A stretch of 64,000 bases of DNA from Treponema sp. GTDB lineage: Bacteria > Spirochaetota > Spirochaetia > Treponematales > Treponemataceae. The notes beneath the pieces are model-generated. The model ran no database searches. It was not told the DNA's origin and was given only the letters and a program-made list of their open reading frames with translations. The stretch spans positions 562-64,561 of the forward strand of contig JAFXDY010000175.1 of assembly GCA_017521105.1 (NCBI GenBank), written 5' to 3'. The translations under genes were made by a program, and so were the position numbers. Below, piece by piece: positions 50,015 through 56,250 of this stretch (position 1 is its first letter; each line of letters opens with the position of its first letter).

Positions 50015-50043
50015 TTGACATAAAATCTAAAAAAAGATATTAT
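50015..50043 (+). promoter_or_regulatory. Sigma70 promoter of the tRNA gene
   Basis: TTGACA-N17-TATTAT. Confidence 0.8.
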
Positions 50044-50057
50044 TCAAAACATCACTT

Positions 50058-50130
50058 GGGGATATAGCTCAGTTGGTAGAGCACACGGCTCATATCCGTG
50101 CGGTCATAGGTCCGAGTCCTATTGTCCCTA
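50058..50130 (+). tRNA. tRNA with CAT anticodon (probably tRNA-Ile2, lysidine; otherwise elongator Met); CCA not encoded
   Basis: Cloverleaf GGGGATA/TGTCCCT, D-arm GCTC/GAGC, anticodon arm CACGG-CTCATAT-CCGTG, T-arm ATAGG-TCCGAGT-CCTAT. Confidence 0.93.
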
Positions 50131-50131
50131 T

Positions 50132-50167
50132 AAAAGGAACTTCTTATAAAGGAGTTCCTTTTTTTTT
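50132..50167 (+). terminator. Intrinsic terminator after the tRNA
   Basis: AAAAGGAACTTC..GGAGTTCCTTTTTTTTT. Confidence 0.8.
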
Positions 50168-50207: not shown

Positions 50208-50981
50208 TTATCTTAATGATGCTTTTGGGATAAAAGTTTTTGCAAAATCAACTAAATCGTTAATTTCTGAATCTGTGTATGGGCTAATTTCGTTGTATGA
50301 TTTGTCAATGCAGGTTCCCGGTTGAAATTGTGCAAATTGCCATGAGGCATCTTTTGGAAGCATTTTTCCTATAATTTCAATTTCTTCTTTTGAAACTAAA
50401 GGTGGAACTAAAACCGTTCGCCATTCTCTACAATCTTCTGCATAATTTGAAACTATTTTTATTGATTGGGATAAAACTTGTTCAAAATATTCTGTGTTGT
50501 TATAAAATTTAGAAACTTTGTTGCATAATAACGAAGCGTATTTTGCTGGGGAAGATTTTATATCCATGGCAATAAAATCTGGGCGTAATTCTTTGTTTTC
50601 TACAAAATAAGATAATTCTTGTGGCAAAGTTCCGTTTGTATCTAATTTTACTTTGTAATCTAATTCTTTTGCTTTTTTGATAATTAAAGGCGTGTAGGGG
50701 TTTATTAAAGGTTCGCCACCACTAATTACTAAACCAGATAAAATTCCTTGGCGTTTTTCAAGATGATCAAATAATTCTTGAATTGTGTTTAGTTTTGATT
50801 GAGACTCTTCTGTATTTTGATTTTGGGCGGTTGTTTTTATTACTAAATCTGTGTTGTAGCAATAGGGACAACGTAAATTGCAGCCTCGTAAAAAAAATGA
50901 ACCTGCAATCCGTCCTGGAAAATCAACTCCTGTTGTTTTTACCAGGACGCCGGCAGGTTCATTTAATGGTAAAGTGTTCAT
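50208..50981 (-). CDS. nrdG: Anaerobic RNR glycyl-radical activating enzyme (radical SAM)
   Basis: DFPG, GCNLRCPYCYN, VISGGEP, KLDTNGT, AMDIK, RTVLVP. Confidence 0.92.
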   Translation of the reverse strand: MNTLPLNEPAGVLVKTTGVDFPGRIAGSFFLRGCNLRCPYCYNTDLVIKTTAQNQNTEESQSKLNTIQELFDHLEKRQGILSGLVISGGEPLINPYTPLIIKKAKELDYKVKLDTNGTLPQELSYFVENKELRPDFIAMDIKSSPAKYASLLCNKVSKFYNNTEYFEQVLSQSIKIVSNYAEDCREWRTVLVPPLVSKEEIEIIGKMLPKDASWQFAQFQPGTCIDKSYNEISPYTDSEINDLVDFAKTFIPKASLR

Positions 50982-51002
50982 TTATACTAAATTTAACAAC
51001 TT

Positions 51003-51536
51003 TTATGATAAAACTGGAACTTTGTTGAATACAGCTTCAAGTTCTTCAACGTTGTGGCATCTTGCTGTTTCAATTCCTTCTTTGTTGTAGAAAATTACAG
51101 TAGGAGATGCAAAAATACCTTTTTTTGCTGCTTCTGCAAGACCTTCTTCTGTATCTACGTCAATTGCACGTCCTGGCATTTCCAAGTTTGACATAAAGTC
51201 TTTTACTGGAGGACAGTTTGGACATGTTTTGCGTGTGTAAAGTTCGTAAGTTACACTATTTGAATCTGCAATAACTTCTACAGTTTTTACTTCTTCTTTT
51301 TTTTCTGCATTGTTTTTAATGCTTGCGATTGTTGTATCAAAGTCTTTTGTTTCTTCTAAAGAAAACAATTTTCTTTGATCAAATTCGTCGCGTTTTCCTC
51401 TATTCCAGTGTTTTACTGCTCTGTAGTAACCTACAATACGAGCATAAACTTCTGTTTCTGTTCCATGAACATCATTTAATGCAGCTTTTGTTTCTGCAAT
51501 TTCTTGTTCAATTTGTTCAAGTGTTCTCATTTCCAT
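51003..51536 (-). CDS. Stand-alone NrdD glycyl-radical domain fused to a glutaredoxin/NrdH-like CxxC domain
   Basis: TEVYARIVGYYRAVKHWNRGKRDEFDQRK; YTRKTCPNCPPVK..ASPTVIF; GGGAGG SD. Confidence 0.88.
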   Translation of the reverse strand: MEMRTLEQIEQEIAETKAALNDVHGTETEVYARIVGYYRAVKHWNRGKRDEFDQRKLFSLEETKDFDTTIASIKNNAEKKEEVKTVEVIADSNSVTYELYTRKTCPNCPPVKDFMSNLEMPGRAIDVDTEEGLAEAAKKGIFASPTVIFYNKEGIETARCHNVEELEAVFNKVPVLS

Positions 51537-51595
51537 TTTTATCCTCCCTATTTATTGTAATTTGTAATGATTACAAAGTTGTATTTATTCCACCT

Positions 51596-51630
51596 ACACT
51601 AAATATAGTGTAGGTTTTTTGGATTGTCAA
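51596..51630 (-). promoter_or_regulatory. NrdR box overlapping an internal sigma70 promoter
   Basis: ACACTAAATATAGTGT (51596-51611); minus strand TTGACA-N17-TATATT (51630-51602). Confidence 0.85.
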
Positions 51631-51677
51631 TAGTTTTGACACTATTATTATCTGAATTTAGCAACAAATTCTTGAAT

Positions 51678-53798
51678 TTATTTTTTGCTTTCTGAAAGAA
51701 TTTTTTCTTTTTCTTCTTCCAAAGCTTTTAGTTTTGCTTTTAGTTCTTTTTCTTTTTCTGCCTTACATTTTGGACATTCAAACTGTTGTCCAGAAATGTA
51801 TCCGTGGATTTTACAGATAGAATAAGTTGGCGAAACTGTAAAGAACGGAATTCTATATTTATGAGAAATTGTTCTAACTAAGTCTGCACAAGCTTTCCAA
51901 TCTTTTAGAGCTTCTCCCATATATACGTGGAACATTGTTCCTCCTGTATACTTTGTTTGAAGTGATTCTTGGTGATCCAATGCTTCCAAAACATCAGCTG
52001 TGTAATCAACTGGAAGTTGTGAAGAGTTTGTATAGAATGGTTCTGTAGTTCCACTTGTAATAATGTTAGGGAACTGTTCTTTATCGTGTTTTGCAAGACG
52101 ATATGATGTAGATTCTGCAGGAGTTGCTTCAAGGTTGAATAAATCGCCTGTTTCTTCCTGATAATCTTGCATTCTTTCTCTCATGTGTTGAAGTACATTT
52201 TCTGCAAATGTTTTTCCTTTTGGTGTAGAAATATCATATTCTTTTCCAAGGAAGTTTTGACAACATTCGTTCATTCCACACAAACCAATTGTATTAAAGT
52301 GGTTTGTTAATGTTTTTAAGTAACGTCTTGTATATGGGAAAAGTCCACCATCATAAAGTTTTTGAATTACTTTACGTTTTGTACAAAGACTTTCTTTTGC
52401 TAAATCCATAAGATAATCAAGGCGTTTGTAGAATTCTTCTTCTGAATTTGCTAGGTAACCAATTTGTGGTAAGTTGATTGTCACAACACCAATTGAACCT
52501 GTAAATTCGTCTGCACCGAACAAACCACCACCACGACGACGCAATTCGCGTTTGTCTAATTGTAAACGACAACACATAGAACGAACATCAGAAGGATTTA
52601 AATCTGAATTAACAAAGTTTTGGAAGTTTGGAGTTCCGTATTGAGCTGTCATTGTGAATAACAATTTTGCGTTTTCGCTTTCCCAGTCAAAATCTTTTGT
52701 GATGTTATAAGTTGGAATAGGGTAGGCAAAACCACGTCCGTCTGCATCACCTTCAATCATAAGTTCAATGAATACTTTGTTAATGATATCCATTTCTTTT
52801 TGACAATCGCCATAAGTGTAATCTTGTTCTTTTCCACCAACGATTGCTTTTTTGTTTTTTAAGTCATCAGGACAAACTAAGTCCATTGTGATATTTGTAA
52901 ATGGTGCTTGGCTTCCCCAACGGCTTGGTGTATTTACACCGTAAATGTAACTTTGAATACATTGACGAACTTGTTTTTCTGATAATTTATCTGCTCTTAC
53001 AAAAGGAGCTAAATATGTGTCGAATGAAGAGAATGCTTGAGCTCCTGCCCATTCGTTTTGCATAATGCCCAAGAAGTTTACAATTTGGTTTACCAATGTT
53101 GTAAGGTGAGTTGCTGGTGTAGAAGTAATTTTATCTGGAACTCCACCCAAACCTTCTTGAATTAATTGTCTTAAAGACCATCCTGCACAGTATCCAGAGA
53201 ACATAGAAAGGTCATGAATATGGAATGCTGCTGTTTTATGAGCTTCTGCAACTTCTTTTGAATAAATGTTATTTAACCAATAGTTAGCAGTGATTGTTCC
53301 TGAGTTGTGAAGAATTAATCCTCCAAGGGAGAAGTTTACGTTTGCATTTTCGTTTACGCGCCAGTCGCTTTGTCCAAGGTATCCATCCATTGTTTTGTTA
53401 ATGTCTACCATAAGTTTTTTTGCATCGCGAACAGCTTCGTGTTGGGCTCTGTAAAGAATGTAAGCTTTTGCTACTTCAACTTGTTTTTCTTCAATAAGAA
53501 CACTTTCTACAATATCTTGAATTTCTTCAATGGCTGGAATTGAGTGTGCTCTTGTTCCCGCTAGTTGAAGTCTTAATTTTTCTTCAACTTTGTCTGTTAA
53601 TGCAGCAGCTCTGTTTGGATCTTTTTGTTTTTCAACTGCCTCAATTGCTTTTTCAATAGCTTTTTCGATTTTTGTTCTGTCGTAAGCAGCTATCTCCCCA
53701 GAACGTTTTACAACTGATTTTAAAAATCCGTTAGTTTCGCTGTCTGAACTAGATCCTAAAAAGTTTCTCCATTCTGGAAAAAAAGATTGATCGCTCAT
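51678..53798 (-). CDS. nrdD: Class III (anaerobic) ribonucleoside-triphosphate reductase lacking the glycyl-radical C-terminus
   Basis: ATP cone VVKRSG, HIHDL, GYCAGW, SMCCRL, ATPAES, YTGGT, CKIHG..CPKC, then a Lys/Glu tail. Confidence 0.93.
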   Translation of the reverse strand: MSDQSFFPEWRNFLGSSSDSETNGFLKSVVKRSGEIAAYDRTKIEKAIEKAIEAVEKQKDPNRAAALTDKVEEKLRLQLAGTRAHSIPAIEEIQDIVESVLIEEKQVEVAKAYILYRAQHEAVRDAKKLMVDINKTMDGYLGQSDWRVNENANVNFSLGGLILHNSGTITANYWLNNIYSKEVAEAHKTAAFHIHDLSMFSGYCAGWSLRQLIQEGLGGVPDKITSTPATHLTTLVNQIVNFLGIMQNEWAGAQAFSSFDTYLAPFVRADKLSEKQVRQCIQSYIYGVNTPSRWGSQAPFTNITMDLVCPDDLKNKKAIVGGKEQDYTYGDCQKEMDIINKVFIELMIEGDADGRGFAYPIPTYNITKDFDWESENAKLLFTMTAQYGTPNFQNFVNSDLNPSDVRSMCCRLQLDKRELRRRGGGLFGADEFTGSIGVVTINLPQIGYLANSEEEFYKRLDYLMDLAKESLCTKRKVIQKLYDGGLFPYTRRYLKTLTNHFNTIGLCGMNECCQNFLGKEYDISTPKGKTFAENVLQHMRERMQDYQEETGDLFNLEATPAESTSYRLAKHDKEQFPNIITSGTTEPFYTNSSQLPVDYTADVLEALDHQESLQTKYTGGTMFHVYMGEALKDWKACADLVRTISHKYRIPFFTVSPTYSICKIHGYISGQQFECPKCKAEKEKELKAKLKALEEEKEKILSESKK

Positions 53799-54265
53799 TT
53801 TTGATTTCCCCTCTTTTCTATTTTTTTTACTTCTTCAATAAATTCTTCTAAATTTTCAAAGTTTCTGTAAACCGAAGCAAATCGGATGTAAGATACTTTG
53901 TCTATTGTATAAAGTTTTTCTAATACAAGTTCCCCCAAATCTGACGTGGAAATTTCCCTTGTTTCTTTTCCTTTGATAATTGCAAGGTCTTCTATGTCGT
54001 TTGCAATTTGTTCAACCATTGCTGTTGAAACTGGACGTTTTTCTAAAGCTCGTTCAATTCCTTTATCAAGTTTTGTTCTGTCAAAAGGCTGTCGTCTTCC
54101 GTCTCTTTTTACAACCATAAATGGTTTTTCATCAATTCTTTCGTAACTTGTAAAACGATGCCCGCAAGCTAAGCATTCACGTCTACGACGTATGCTTTCA
54201 CCGTTTGCCATAGTTCTTGATTCAAGAACTTTATCATCAAGATTTCCACATGATGGACAACGCAT
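53795..54265 (-). CDS. nrdR: Transcriptional repressor NrdR
   Basis: MRCPSC, IRRRRECLAC, RFTSYE, VVKRDG, YIRFASVY; stop overlaps the nrdD start (ATGA). Confidence 0.97.
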   Translation of the reverse strand: MRCPSCGNLDDKVLESRTMANGESIRRRRECLACGHRFTSYERIDEKPFMVVKRDGRRQPFDRTKLDKGIERALEKRPVSTAMVEQIANDIEDLAIIKGKETREISTSDLGELVLEKLYTIDKVSYIRFASVYRNFENLEEFIEEVKKIEKRGNQK

Positions 54266-54282
54266 AATTACCTCTAAGATGT

Positions 54283-54341
54283 GTGTTATATATAGTGTAC
54301 CAAGTTAGTATAAATATATAATACAACACTAAATGTAAGTT
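54283..54341 (-). promoter_or_regulatory. Tandem NrdR boxes upstream of nrdR-nrdD
   Basis: GTGTTATATATAGTGT (54283-54298) and ACACTAAATGTAAGTT (54326-54341). Confidence 0.7.
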
Positions 54342-54444: not shown

Positions 54445-56250
54445 CTATTTTTTATTTTTAGAATTTCTTTTTTTTGATTTTTTCTTTAGTGATCTGTAAC
54501 TTGGAATGTAATCTGAAAAAGTAAATGTTTTGTACATATAAAAAGCGTATGCTAGTACTAATAGTATACAAGTATAAGGGAACCAATTTCCAAATTTTGC
54601 GTAAGTTGTCATTTTTCTTTGATAAATTGGAACATCAAAACTTGTGGCACAAGCTTCAAATAGAGGTTGATCAGCAATGATTTTTCCTTGTGGATTTACA
54701 ACAACTGAATATCCAGAATTACTTGAACGAACTAATGTTGTTCTGTATTCAATGGCTCTATATGAAGCTATTACAAAGTGTTGATATTCGCTAGATTTTG
54801 TTTTTGACCAAGAATCATCTGTTATATTTACAAATAATTCTGCTCCATTTAAAAACATTGGTCTTATTACGTCTGTAAAAGCATCATCAAAACAAATTGG
54901 AGTGGAAATTCTTACAGTTGGTTCTTTTGTTTCTAGTTGTTTTTGCTTATTATAGGAAATTGATAAATCAATATATTTTGTTGCAGGTAAAATGCGAGTA
55001 TTTGACCATTTGCATGGAATATCAAAGAAAACATATTGGTCACCAGGAACCCATCCTGCAGAAATTCCAAGAAAATTTGTTAAAAATTCTAATGCAGCTG
55101 GATATTCTCTAAAAGGTAAAGATTCAGCAAATGGAACTAGGTGATTTTTTCCATAATAGCCTCTAAAGTTTCCATTTTTATCAAATACAAATGCACTATT
55201 ACAATATTCTAAGGGGTCTTCATTTTTTTTGTAACTTCCCCCAACAAGTAATGGAGTTTTTATTTCTTTAATAAATGGAATAAGTGGTGCTTCGTATGGA
55301 AAGTTTTTATAATATGAATAATTGCCTGGAAATGAATATCGTAGAACACCTTCGCTCCAAACTACTAAATTTGCCTTATCATTTTTTTCATCAAGTTTTT
55401 TAATTTGTTCTTTTGTAAGTTCTTCTGAACGAATTATGGAATCTGTGTCTGAGTCTTCTTCCCAAGGATTGCTATTTTGTTGAACCATTATTGTTGTTAG
55501 AATTTTTTGTGGTTCAATTGTTTTGTTGTACTGATATGTTCCATATATAAAAATCAAAATTAATAATGCTGAAAAAGTTTTTATTAAATATGATAAATAT
55601 GAGTTGCTTGTAGTTTTTTTGTATAATTTTTTGTTTTGTAGTTTTAATAATGATTCTGCAAAAATACAGTTAAATAGAACTATTATAAATGTTATTCCGT
55701 ATGTTCCTGTAATTGCTGCTGTTTGTCTTAAGATATCCAATCTAAATACAGCACTAGAAACTGTTCCCCATGGGTAACCTAAAAAGCCTGATGATTTTAT
55801 CCATTCGTATATTGTGTAACATGTTGCAAAATATAAGATTTTGAAAGATGAACTTTGGACAAATTTTAAATTATAAGATTCTTCGTTTAATTGATTATGA
55901 CTTTTTGATGTTGAAAAAGGAATGTAAAAGAAAAGTCCAACACCACCGCCAATTACAGCTGTTCCAAGTGCCGACGCTCCTAAAGTAAAAACTGCAAAAT
56001 CTTTAAAAAATGCAAGCCAAAAACTTGATAAAAGATGTGTTGTAATTGTTTGAATGAAGAAAATTAAAAAAGCTCGTTTGTAACTATTTATTTTTGTAAG
56101 TGTTAAATATAGTGGAACTAATGAAATTAAAGTAAAAATAGGTTGTCCTAGATTGTAAATTTCATTAGGAATTGCAAGTGAAAGTAATATGCCTGAAAAA
56201 ACTGATAAAAAAACTTGTAAAATCAAATCCATTATATTAAAATTATACAT
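54445..56250 (-). CDS. lnt: Apolipoprotein N-acyltransferase
   Basis: Multiple TMs, GYPW, VWSEG, KNHLVPFAE, ICFDD, RAIEYR..NSGYS. Confidence 0.93.
   Translation of the reverse strand: MYNFNIMDLILQVFLSVFSGILLSLAIPNEIYNLGQPIFTLISLVPLYLTLTKINSYKRAFLIFFIQTITTHLLSSFWLAFFKDFAVFTLGASALGTAVIGGGVGLFFYIPFSTSKSHNQLNEESYNLKFVQSSSFKILYFATCYTIYEWIKSSGFLGYPWGTVSSAVFRLDILRQTAAITGTYGITFIIVLFNCIFAESLLKLQNKKLYKKTTSNSYLSYLIKTFSALLILIFIYGTYQYNKTIEPQKILTTIMVQQNSNPWEEDSDTDSIIRSEELTKEQIKKLDEKNDKANLVVWSEGVLRYSFPGNYSYYKNFPYEAPLIPFIKEIKTPLLVGGSYKKNEDPLEYCNSAFVFDKNGNFRGYYGKNHLVPFAESLPFREYPAALEFLTNFLGISAGWVPGDQYVFFDIPCKWSNTRILPATKYIDLSISYNKQKQLETKEPTVRISTPICFDDAFTDVIRPMFLNGAELFVNITDDSWSKTKSSEYQHFVIASYRAIEYRTTLVRSSNSGYSVVVNPQGKIIADQPLFEACATSFDVPIYQRKMTTYAKFGNWFPYTCILLVLAYAFYMYKTFTFSDYIPSYRSLKKKSKKRNSKNKK

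Follow-up and report, generated by a model that had tools for sequence, protein, structure and literature searches.

A predicted two-chain class III ribonucleotide reductase in Treponema with its radical glycine loop on a small thioredoxin-fold subunit

In characterized class III ribonucleotide reductases (RNRs), the glycine loop is formed by the last 30–40 residues of the catalytic protein NrdD itself. The present analysis concerns an nrd operon in which this loop was found on a second, smaller protein, encoded within a 64,000-nucleotide stretch of Treponema DNA (NCBI GenBank assembly GCA_017521105.1, contig JAFXDY010000175.1, positions 562–64,561 of the forward strand), hereafter the window. 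The source is a draft metagenome-assembled genome of a gut or rumen Treponema, comprising 232 contigs and 82% complete. Division of an RNR between two genes has been encountered in another class, as Crona et al. reportedly described in 2015 the NrdJa and NrdJb proteins of Pseudomonas aeruginosa as a natural two-gene class II RNR, the small C-terminal piece of which is said to be needed for turnover.

The literature describes split class I and class II RNRs, phage nrdD genes split by introns or inteins, glutaredoxin (Grx) fusions, and GrcA. A full-text search of openly accessible papers returned no class III enzyme with its glycine loop on a separate chain. GrcA (YfiD) of Escherichia coli and Y06I of phage T4 are autonomous glycyl radical cofactors for pyruvate formate-lyase (PMC8683613). 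Another study reports a Grx::NrdB fusion in Facklamia ignava in which a redoxin is carried on the radical-bearing RNR component and is shown to act as reductant (PMC6187632).

Results

Two open reading frames divide the class III catalytic profile

The operon occupies the minus strand of the window, with its genes arranged head to tail in the order nrdR, nrdD, a 177-residue open reading frame (ORF) encoding the small subunit, and nrdG:

53795–54265, minus strand: nrdR, a repressor with zinc ribbon and ATP cone (TIGR00244, 179 bits against a cut-off of 125; Pfam Zn_ribbon_NrdR and ATP-cone)
51678–53798, minus strand: nrdD, core subunit of 706 residues (Pfam NRDD and ATP cone; NF006126)
51003–51536, minus strand: small-subunit ORF of 177 residues (Pfam NRDD end and a Glutaredoxin match)
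50208–50981, minus strand: nrdG, radical S-adenosylmethionine activase of 257 residues (TIGR02495; Pfam Radical_SAM; motif CNLRCPYC)

The nrdR stop codon and the nrdD start overlap (ATGA), a spacer of 141 nucleotides separates nrdD from the small gene, and nrdG starts 21 nucleotides past the end of the small gene. The nrdD and small ORFs share a reading frame in the window, and the small gene has its own ATG and Shine-Dalgarno sequence.

The Pfam NRDD profile (PF13597) was found to be divided exactly between the two ORFs, with positions 1–532 of 562 matched by NrdD (578.9 bits against a cut-off of 26.2; E = 1.6e-173) and positions 532–562 matched by residues 27–58 of the small protein. The NCBIfam profile NF006126 is partitioned similarly, its positions 3–653 of 684 falling on NrdD (1084 bits against a cut-off of 548) and positions 648–683 on the small ORF. 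The NrdD chain comprises an ATP cone (residues 28–121), a barrel with C204, a finger loop MCCR (408–411) with C409–C410, a glutamate at position 557, and a zinc ribbon formed by C662, H665, C675, and C678; neither the glycine loop nor its R-V/I-x-G-Y motif was found in this chain. The four zinc-ribbon residues, as well as C204, C409–C410, and E557, are invariant among 38 sequences.

The small subunit consists of an N-terminal helix (residues 3–22), a glycine-loop module (25–58), a linker (61–95), and a thioredoxin fold (96–172). Its radical glycine motif spans residues 33–37, with the codon for G36 at 51431–51429, and a CPNC motif occupies residues 105–108 (51224–51213); G36, C105, and C108 are invariant in small-subunit relatives. 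The loop matches the NRDD family and not the Gly_radical family of the pyruvate formate-lyase type. The initial annotation had described an NrdD with an ATP cone and GYCAGW, SMCCRL, and CKIHG..CPKC elements but without the glycine motif, followed by an ORF in which EVYARIVGYYR leads through a linker into a CPNC domain, and then by nrdG; each of these elements is present in the translations, and the profile matches agree. The nrdG product scores slightly below the cut-off for TIGR02495 (NrdG2; 127.8 against 131.15 bits) and matches Pfam Radical_SAM with 60.5 bits. In every related locus where nrdG was captured, it follows the small ORF.

The break is conserved in Treponema and in other spirochaete families

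A pattern scan of one genome per species yielded 80 loci, nearly all labelled Treponema and including the cultured species T. bryantii, T. porcinum, and T. socranskii. All 74 loci in which both genes were present exhibited the same arrangement, namely an nrdD of approximately 700 residues lacking the glycine motif, a small gene encoding 165–230 residues with RIVGYY and a CxxC, and then nrdG. The spacer between nrdD and the small gene ranged from −8 to 230 nucleotides and was often no multiple of three. A profile search with the small ORF against 1.84 billion cluster representatives (clustered at 50% identity) returned at least 161 clusters at E ≤ 1e-30. Among the best 149 of these matches, 143 keep RIVGY and a downstream CxxC and are extended at the N terminus by 20 residues or more, and CPNC occurs in 85. 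In an even sample of the phylum, 61 of 301 genomes matched, with full-length separate small ORFs in many spirochaete families. The survey of spirochaete nrdD loci proposed in the initial annotation finds both the split and the CxxC fusion retained throughout the Treponema loci and in other families.

Selection was assessed as the ratio of nonsynonymous to synonymous substitution rates (dN/dS), pooled over eight pairs with close relatives; the values are approximate because synonymous sites are near saturation. The loop module had the lowest ratio (0.03), followed by the NrdD core (0.05) and the thioredoxin fold (0.12), and the linker had the highest (0.54); the NrdD tail (0.17) and the N-terminal tail of the small subunit (0.22) gave intermediate values. 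Both domains of the small protein are under purifying selection, and so are the two tails.

Three of the operons reside on contigs labelled Prevotella, Paratractidigestivibacter, and Bacteroidaceae (L072, L078, and L080, respectively); these nest within the Treponema clade and probably reflect mis-binned metagenome-assembled genomes rather than gene transfer. In one genome (G014, L018:2043–3310), nrdR is followed by a 269-residue ORF with an NrdD-like N terminus and a thioredoxin-like end resembling that of the small subunit, which appears to be what a deletion has left of the split operon; a full-length nrdD lies elsewhere in that genome. All nine complete genomes of a sister genus have a small gene that encodes only 95 residues, consisting of helix and loop with a vestigial CDCPP at the place of the CxxC. 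There the small gene adjoins nrdG (L112:4065–5095) and lies approximately 600 kb from a truncated nrdD (G055:C1:712268–713863), and these genomes also carry a class I or class II reductase.

Complex prediction places the glycine loop against NrdD and pairs the tails at the break

Every split form carries two extensions at the break: approximately 25 additional residues follow the CxxC in NrdD, and approximately 22 precede the loop in the small protein. These extensions are conserved, exhibit hydrophobic residues at heptad spacing, and are not present in single-chain relatives. The NrdD extension in the window corresponds to the following feature:

51681–51764, minus strand: C-terminal tail of NrdD (residues 679–706), a Lys/Glu-rich, heptad-patterned helix conserved in split forms

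Modelling of the complex was performed with NrdD residues 130–706 and the small protein in three runs alongside three controls. The glycine loop was placed against the NrdD body with an ipSAE of 0.84, as compared to 0.04 for the best control. In a calibration, 58 of 80 solved complexes attained this mark, as did 2 of 110 mismatched pairs; these counts apply only roughly, since the alignments used here were built for the present analysis. At least 80% of contacts were common to all three runs, and the confidence of the partner (predicted local distance difference test, pLDDT) was at least 74.

The predicted interface has three parts. Residues 28–32 of the small subunit pair with an NrdD strand at the zinc ribbon (658–662), the loop region (23–40) together with residues 43–76 packs against barrel residues of NrdD, and NrdD residues 678–704 contact small-subunit residues 4–20 at i, i+3/4, and i+7 spacing. 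NrdD residue 675 touches small-subunit residues 27–28, and the two helices would therefore run antiparallel. In the model, the paired tails form a clasp at the place of the lost peptide bond. The thioredoxin domain lies outside the confident interface, a position that fits tethering by the linker, which was modelled as disordered. In AlphaFold2 predictions of the small subunit, the thioredoxin fold had pLDDT values above 90, and the linker fell below 50 at residues 63–90. The isolated loop module was drawn there as one long helix; this drawing was set aside as probably an artefact of folding without the barrel.

A minimal thioredoxin fold accompanies an NrdD2 residue set

The redoxin domain of the small subunit had its best Foldseek matches among thioredoxins and short thioredoxin-like proteins, with a probability of 1.00. 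Residues 98–141 score slightly above the cut-off for Pfam Glutaredoxin (26.5 against 22.9 bits), and the domain falls far below the cut-offs for NrdH (TIGR02194; 16.3 against 85.75 bits) and for the MJ0307-type thioredoxin family (23.6 against 92.75 bits). It is a minimal thioredoxin fold, and not a demonstrable glutaredoxin or NrdH. Of the earlier designation of this CPNC domain as glutaredoxin/NrdH-like, the thioredoxin fold with a CxxC is upheld, and a family-level affiliation with NrdH or glutaredoxin is not demonstrable from the profile scores and the structural matches.

The closest solved relative of NrdD is the Thermotoga maritima enzyme (E = 4.5e-39 to 4COI), in which C125, C329–C330, and E495 align with C204, C409–C410, and E557. 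NrdD from the window accordingly carries the full residue set of NrdD2, the thioredoxin-dependent subtype, with a double-cysteine finger loop, a βA cysteine, and an active-site glutamate. In the Neisseria bacilliformis enzyme, these features have been tied to disulfide-based, thioredoxin-driven turnover (Wei et al. 2014, as summarized in PMC9669993). The finger loop of the split NrdD also keeps the methionine of formate users, and by this residue the enzyme may be capable of formate use.

The split enzyme looks like the only reductase of this organism

The class I/II large subunit (PF02867) was not found in this genome or in any of 24 sampled genomes of the genus, and was present in each of the 16 genomes taken from the order's other families. 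In five genomes, including the present one, no full-length NrdD, class I small subunit, or monomeric class II enzyme was found; these are drafts (82% complete for this genome and 100, 94, 94, and 76% for the others), so such genes are scored as not found rather than absent. The split enzyme looks like the sole RNR of this organism, and the concordance of five genomes renders a non-functional split unlikely. A thioredoxin reductase is encoded in the genome, scoring above its family cut-off. A glutathione synthetase domain was not found in the five genomes, a result for one domain family that does not by itself show absence of glutathione.

Besides the split gene, many genomes of the genus have a full-length nrdD of the formate type, in which the finger loop is the single-cysteine CMGCRS and the glycine-loop sequence is also different. 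One full-length formate-type NrdD (L106:814–3894, genome G004) is lengthened to 1026 residues by an insertion, possibly an intein, of approximately 300 residues near the beginning of the catalytic domain.

A predicted internal promoter with a putative NrdR box precedes the small gene in one clade

Scans for regulatory sites identified features within and at both ends of the operon:

51596–51654, minus strand: predicted internal promoter and putative NrdR operator (promoter scan and NrdR-box consensus scan)
54341–54326 and 54298–54283, minus strand: candidate pair of half-degenerate NrdR boxes upstream of nrdR (read from the sequence)
50132–50162, no strand: GC-poor hairpin of 14 bp with A/T runs on both sides (terminator-like site scan)

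The promoter in the spacer between nrdD and the small gene consists of a −35 element TTGACA (51630–51625) and a −10 element TATATT (51607–51602) separated by 17 nucleotides, with 11 of 12 consensus matches, and scores above all other promoter-like sites on the minus strand of the region. The proximal NrdR box, ACACTATATTTAGTGT (51611–51596), matches the consensus at 15 of 16 positions, covers the −10 element, and is the only site in the window with at most one mismatch. Of 74 related loci, 43 keep an NrdR box, and these are essentially the ones whose spacer exceeds approximately 85 nucleotides. In these relatives, a second box often lies 41–43 nucleotides upstream, corresponding to 25–27 bp between boxes, and the distal box matches at 13–14 of 16 positions. 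NrdR boxes have been described in pairs 15–16 or 24–27 bp apart, and the latter "long spacer" class, into which the pairs of these relatives fall, was shown to be bound by NrdR proteins (PMC12051234).

The pair upstream of nrdR has a 27-bp spacer and one good half-site in each box, neither of which passes a 3-mismatch scan; these are tentative candidate NrdR sites, weaker than the box in the spacer. The minus strand shows no terminator-like site in the stretch that separates nrdD from the small gene, so that transcripts from the nrdR promoter are likely to read through as well. Where the genes abut or overlap, as in other lineages, there is no box, consistent with the internal promoter being a clade-specific addition rather than part of the basic design. 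The proposal in the initial annotation that the small gene has its own NrdR-controlled promoter finds support in the window as a predicted promoter overlapped by a candidate NrdR box, a feature of a single clade rather than of the family.

The hairpin, situated between nrdG and a convergent transfer RNA (tRNA) gene, is likely a two-way terminator marking the operon end. The tRNA gene (50058–50130, plus strand, 66 bits) converges on nrdG and is preceded by a near-consensus promoter at 50015–50043. The nrd operon is directly preceded on its own strand by a gene for a 601-residue membrane protein (54445–56250).

Discussion

The split arrangement is real and conserved, and the two-chain class III reductase that it encodes is very probably functional. 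The initial annotation had proposed an obligate two-chain enzyme with its glycine loop fused to a CxxC redoxin and co-encoded with the activase; comparative and modelling evidence supports this proposal, and a working class III RNR built of two different chains plus an activase is considered highly likely. For the part of the small chain in radical chemistry, sequence, conservation, and modelling all provide good support. For the thioredoxin domain, the NrdD2 residues, the thioredoxin fold, and the thioredoxin reductase in the genome together lead us to infer, by reasoning from sequence, a tethered dithiol that would re-reduce the active-site disulfide.

A plausible catalytic cycle can be proposed on this basis. 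The small protein would dock with its G36 loop inserted into the NrdD barrel, strand 28–32 pairing with NrdD 658–662, and an antiparallel two-helix clasp between NrdD 679–704 and small-subunit residues 4–20 would stand in for the lost peptide bond. NrdG would generate the G36 radical with S-adenosylmethionine, and the radical would be passed first to C409 or C410 of the finger loop and from there to the substrate. Each turnover would leave C204 joined by a disulfide to a cysteine of the finger loop, as in NrdD2 of N. bacilliformis and T. maritima, to be re-reduced by the CPNC thioredoxin fold on its floppy linker of approximately 35 residues. The thioredoxin fold would itself be recycled, probably by the thioredoxin reductase of the genome. 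Transcription would proceed from the nrdR promoter across the operon and, in this clade, also from the internal promoter ahead of the small gene and nrdG.

Several points weigh against this interpretation or parts of it. The whole family is known from sequence and models. The complex score may partly reflect likeness of the two chains to solved single-chain NrdD structures, which would be likeness rather than proof of binding; the clasp alone, as far as we can tell, is outside that precedent. Since the thioredoxin domain is outside the confident interface, the case for its reductant role is made by the NrdD2 residues and by the fusion, and the sister genus without a thioredoxin domain indicates that the fused reductant is dispensable in some lineages. 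As the genome is 82% complete, the designation of the split enzyme as sole RNR leans on relatives that are also draft assemblies, and the full-length formate-type nrdD in many genomes of the genus implies that the split enzyme is not always indispensable. In the internal promoter, the distal NrdR box (51654–51639, with a 27-bp spacer to the proximal box) is degenerate, only its right half being kept.

Of the alternatives to an obligate two-chain enzyme, a spare part akin to GrcA deserves the most attention. The small protein could serve to repair a complete NrdD cleaved by O2, or act as an exchangeable, consumable cartridge supplied in surplus by the internal promoter. A stand-alone glycine-loop protein encoded beside the activase, an NrdR-boxed promoter of its own in this clade, and the presence in some genomes of the genus of a full-length nrdD are all compatible with such a function. 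However, the full-length paralogue differs in loop sequence and has a finger loop of the formate type, five genomes yielded no full-length NrdD, and the genes overlap in many lineages, suggesting equal expression of the two chains. The adjacent NrdD is without a loop of its own, making the small chain a regular part rather than a spare, and the spare-part function is regarded as decidedly improbable. The replaceable subunit envisaged in the initial annotation is likewise an analogy with GrcA. A related model retains the two-chain enzyme and makes the small chain a dissociable radical cartridge, which would be activated by NrdG off the enzyme and dock via the clasp, so that the 20-kDa chain alone would be replaced after O2 damage, with supply from the internal promoter together with the activase. 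This model is unlikely, though if true, activation off the enzyme would avoid pulling a buried loop out of the barrel.

Rejoining of the two ORFs into a single chain, whether by stop-codon readthrough, frameshifting, RNA splicing, or protein trans-splicing, was entertained because both lie in the same frame 141 nucleotides apart in the window. That frame, however, contains eight stop codons in the spacer, the spacer lengths seen across loci would often break the frame, and the small gene has initiation signals of its own. No Rfam intron or other RNA family was found in the operon, no intein domain was found by Pfam, the tails are only approximately 25 residues long, and in the sister genus the genes are 600 kb apart. 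On the stop codons, spacer lengths, and Rfam and Pfam results, readthrough, frameshift, intron, and intein were ruled out, and rejoining is very improbable. An assembly error, or a recent disruption producing a pseudogene, might be suspected in a draft metagenome-assembled genome of so many contigs, and the initial annotation had raised the prospect of close relatives with a continuous nrdD and a misassembled window. The split was instead found in 74 independent assemblies, cultured species included, both parts are under strong purifying selection, and the extra helices specific to split forms are conserved. Artefact or decay was ruled out by this conservation and selection, and almost no probability is assigned to it.

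A two-chain class III reductase bears on several broader questions. Class III RNRs are taught with the radical glycine in the catalytic chain, a picture that a widespread separate-chain version would change. How an activase gains access to a barrel-buried loop is an open question for glycyl radical enzymes, and a separate loop chain would serve its study; with the loop on its own chain, activation of the free protein, docking, inter-chain radical transfer, and repair of O2 damage become separately measurable. Fusion of the radical module to a reductant suggests electron delivery by a tethered domain. In those members of the genus in which only the split enzyme was found, DNA precursors appear to be supplied by this enzyme alone.

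The junction between zinc ribbon and loop is broken a second time, independently, in a formate-type NrdD (finger loop YMGCRT) of two genomes of the same genus, G004 and G008 (L100:1892–4537, L101:77–2446, and L102:808–3429). The large gene stops just past its CPRC zinc ribbon and is followed by several stop codons, a Shine-Dalgarno site, a loop-only ORF of 63–68 residues, and then nrdG; an unsplit orthologue of 782 residues is found in L105. Within the unlikely cartridge model, recurrence of this break would mark the junction as a hinge general to glycyl radical enzymes.

Single-chain NrdD-loop-thioredoxin fusions of other spirochaetes (816–885 residues; L013, L113, L114, and P0121) are close relatives of this NrdD and have the same three modules in the same order. 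In these fusions, the second CxxC of the zinc ribbon is joined to the loop by 3–4 residues in one chain without helical tails. A shared-word search for longer fused relatives returned only two proteins, a weak measure of rarity, and the whole-genome sample found more. In a tree of NrdD cores, the fused form of a distant family branches first and other fused forms are scattered among split ones, with well-supported branches forcing at least three changes between fused and split states. With a very long branch leading to the sole plain NrdD outgroup, the direction of change is uncertain. Apparent homology of the helical tails across all split forms favours one fission followed by re-fusions over repeated fissions, without settling the matter.

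Compared with single-chain NrdD2 enzymes and their NrdG (N. bacilliformis; T. maritima, PDB 4COI and 4U3E), the split enzyme has in common the catalytic domain, finger loop, βA cysteine, glutamate, zinc ribbon, RIVGYY-type loop sequence, and radical S-adenosylmethionine activase. It differs in that the Treponema loop resides on a second polypeptide with a redoxin and in the extra helices at the break on both chains, whereas the thioredoxin of single-chain NrdD2 is a free protein encoded elsewhere. NrdJa/NrdJb is reminiscent of the present system as a two-gene enzyme but belongs to class II, with B12 as the radical source, and its small piece reportedly carries redox cysteines rather than the radical site. 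GrcA and Y06I resemble the small subunit as small stand-alone glycine-radical-loop proteins served by a radical S-adenosylmethionine activase; they act, however, on a pyruvate formate-lyase that has its own loop, and only after O2 damage, whereas the Treponema loop is of the NrdD type and its partner NrdD has none. The Grx::NrdB fusion of Facklamia likewise joins a redoxin to a radical-bearing component, but that component is a class I metal-tyrosyl radical subunit and the fusion is N terminal and glutathione dependent.

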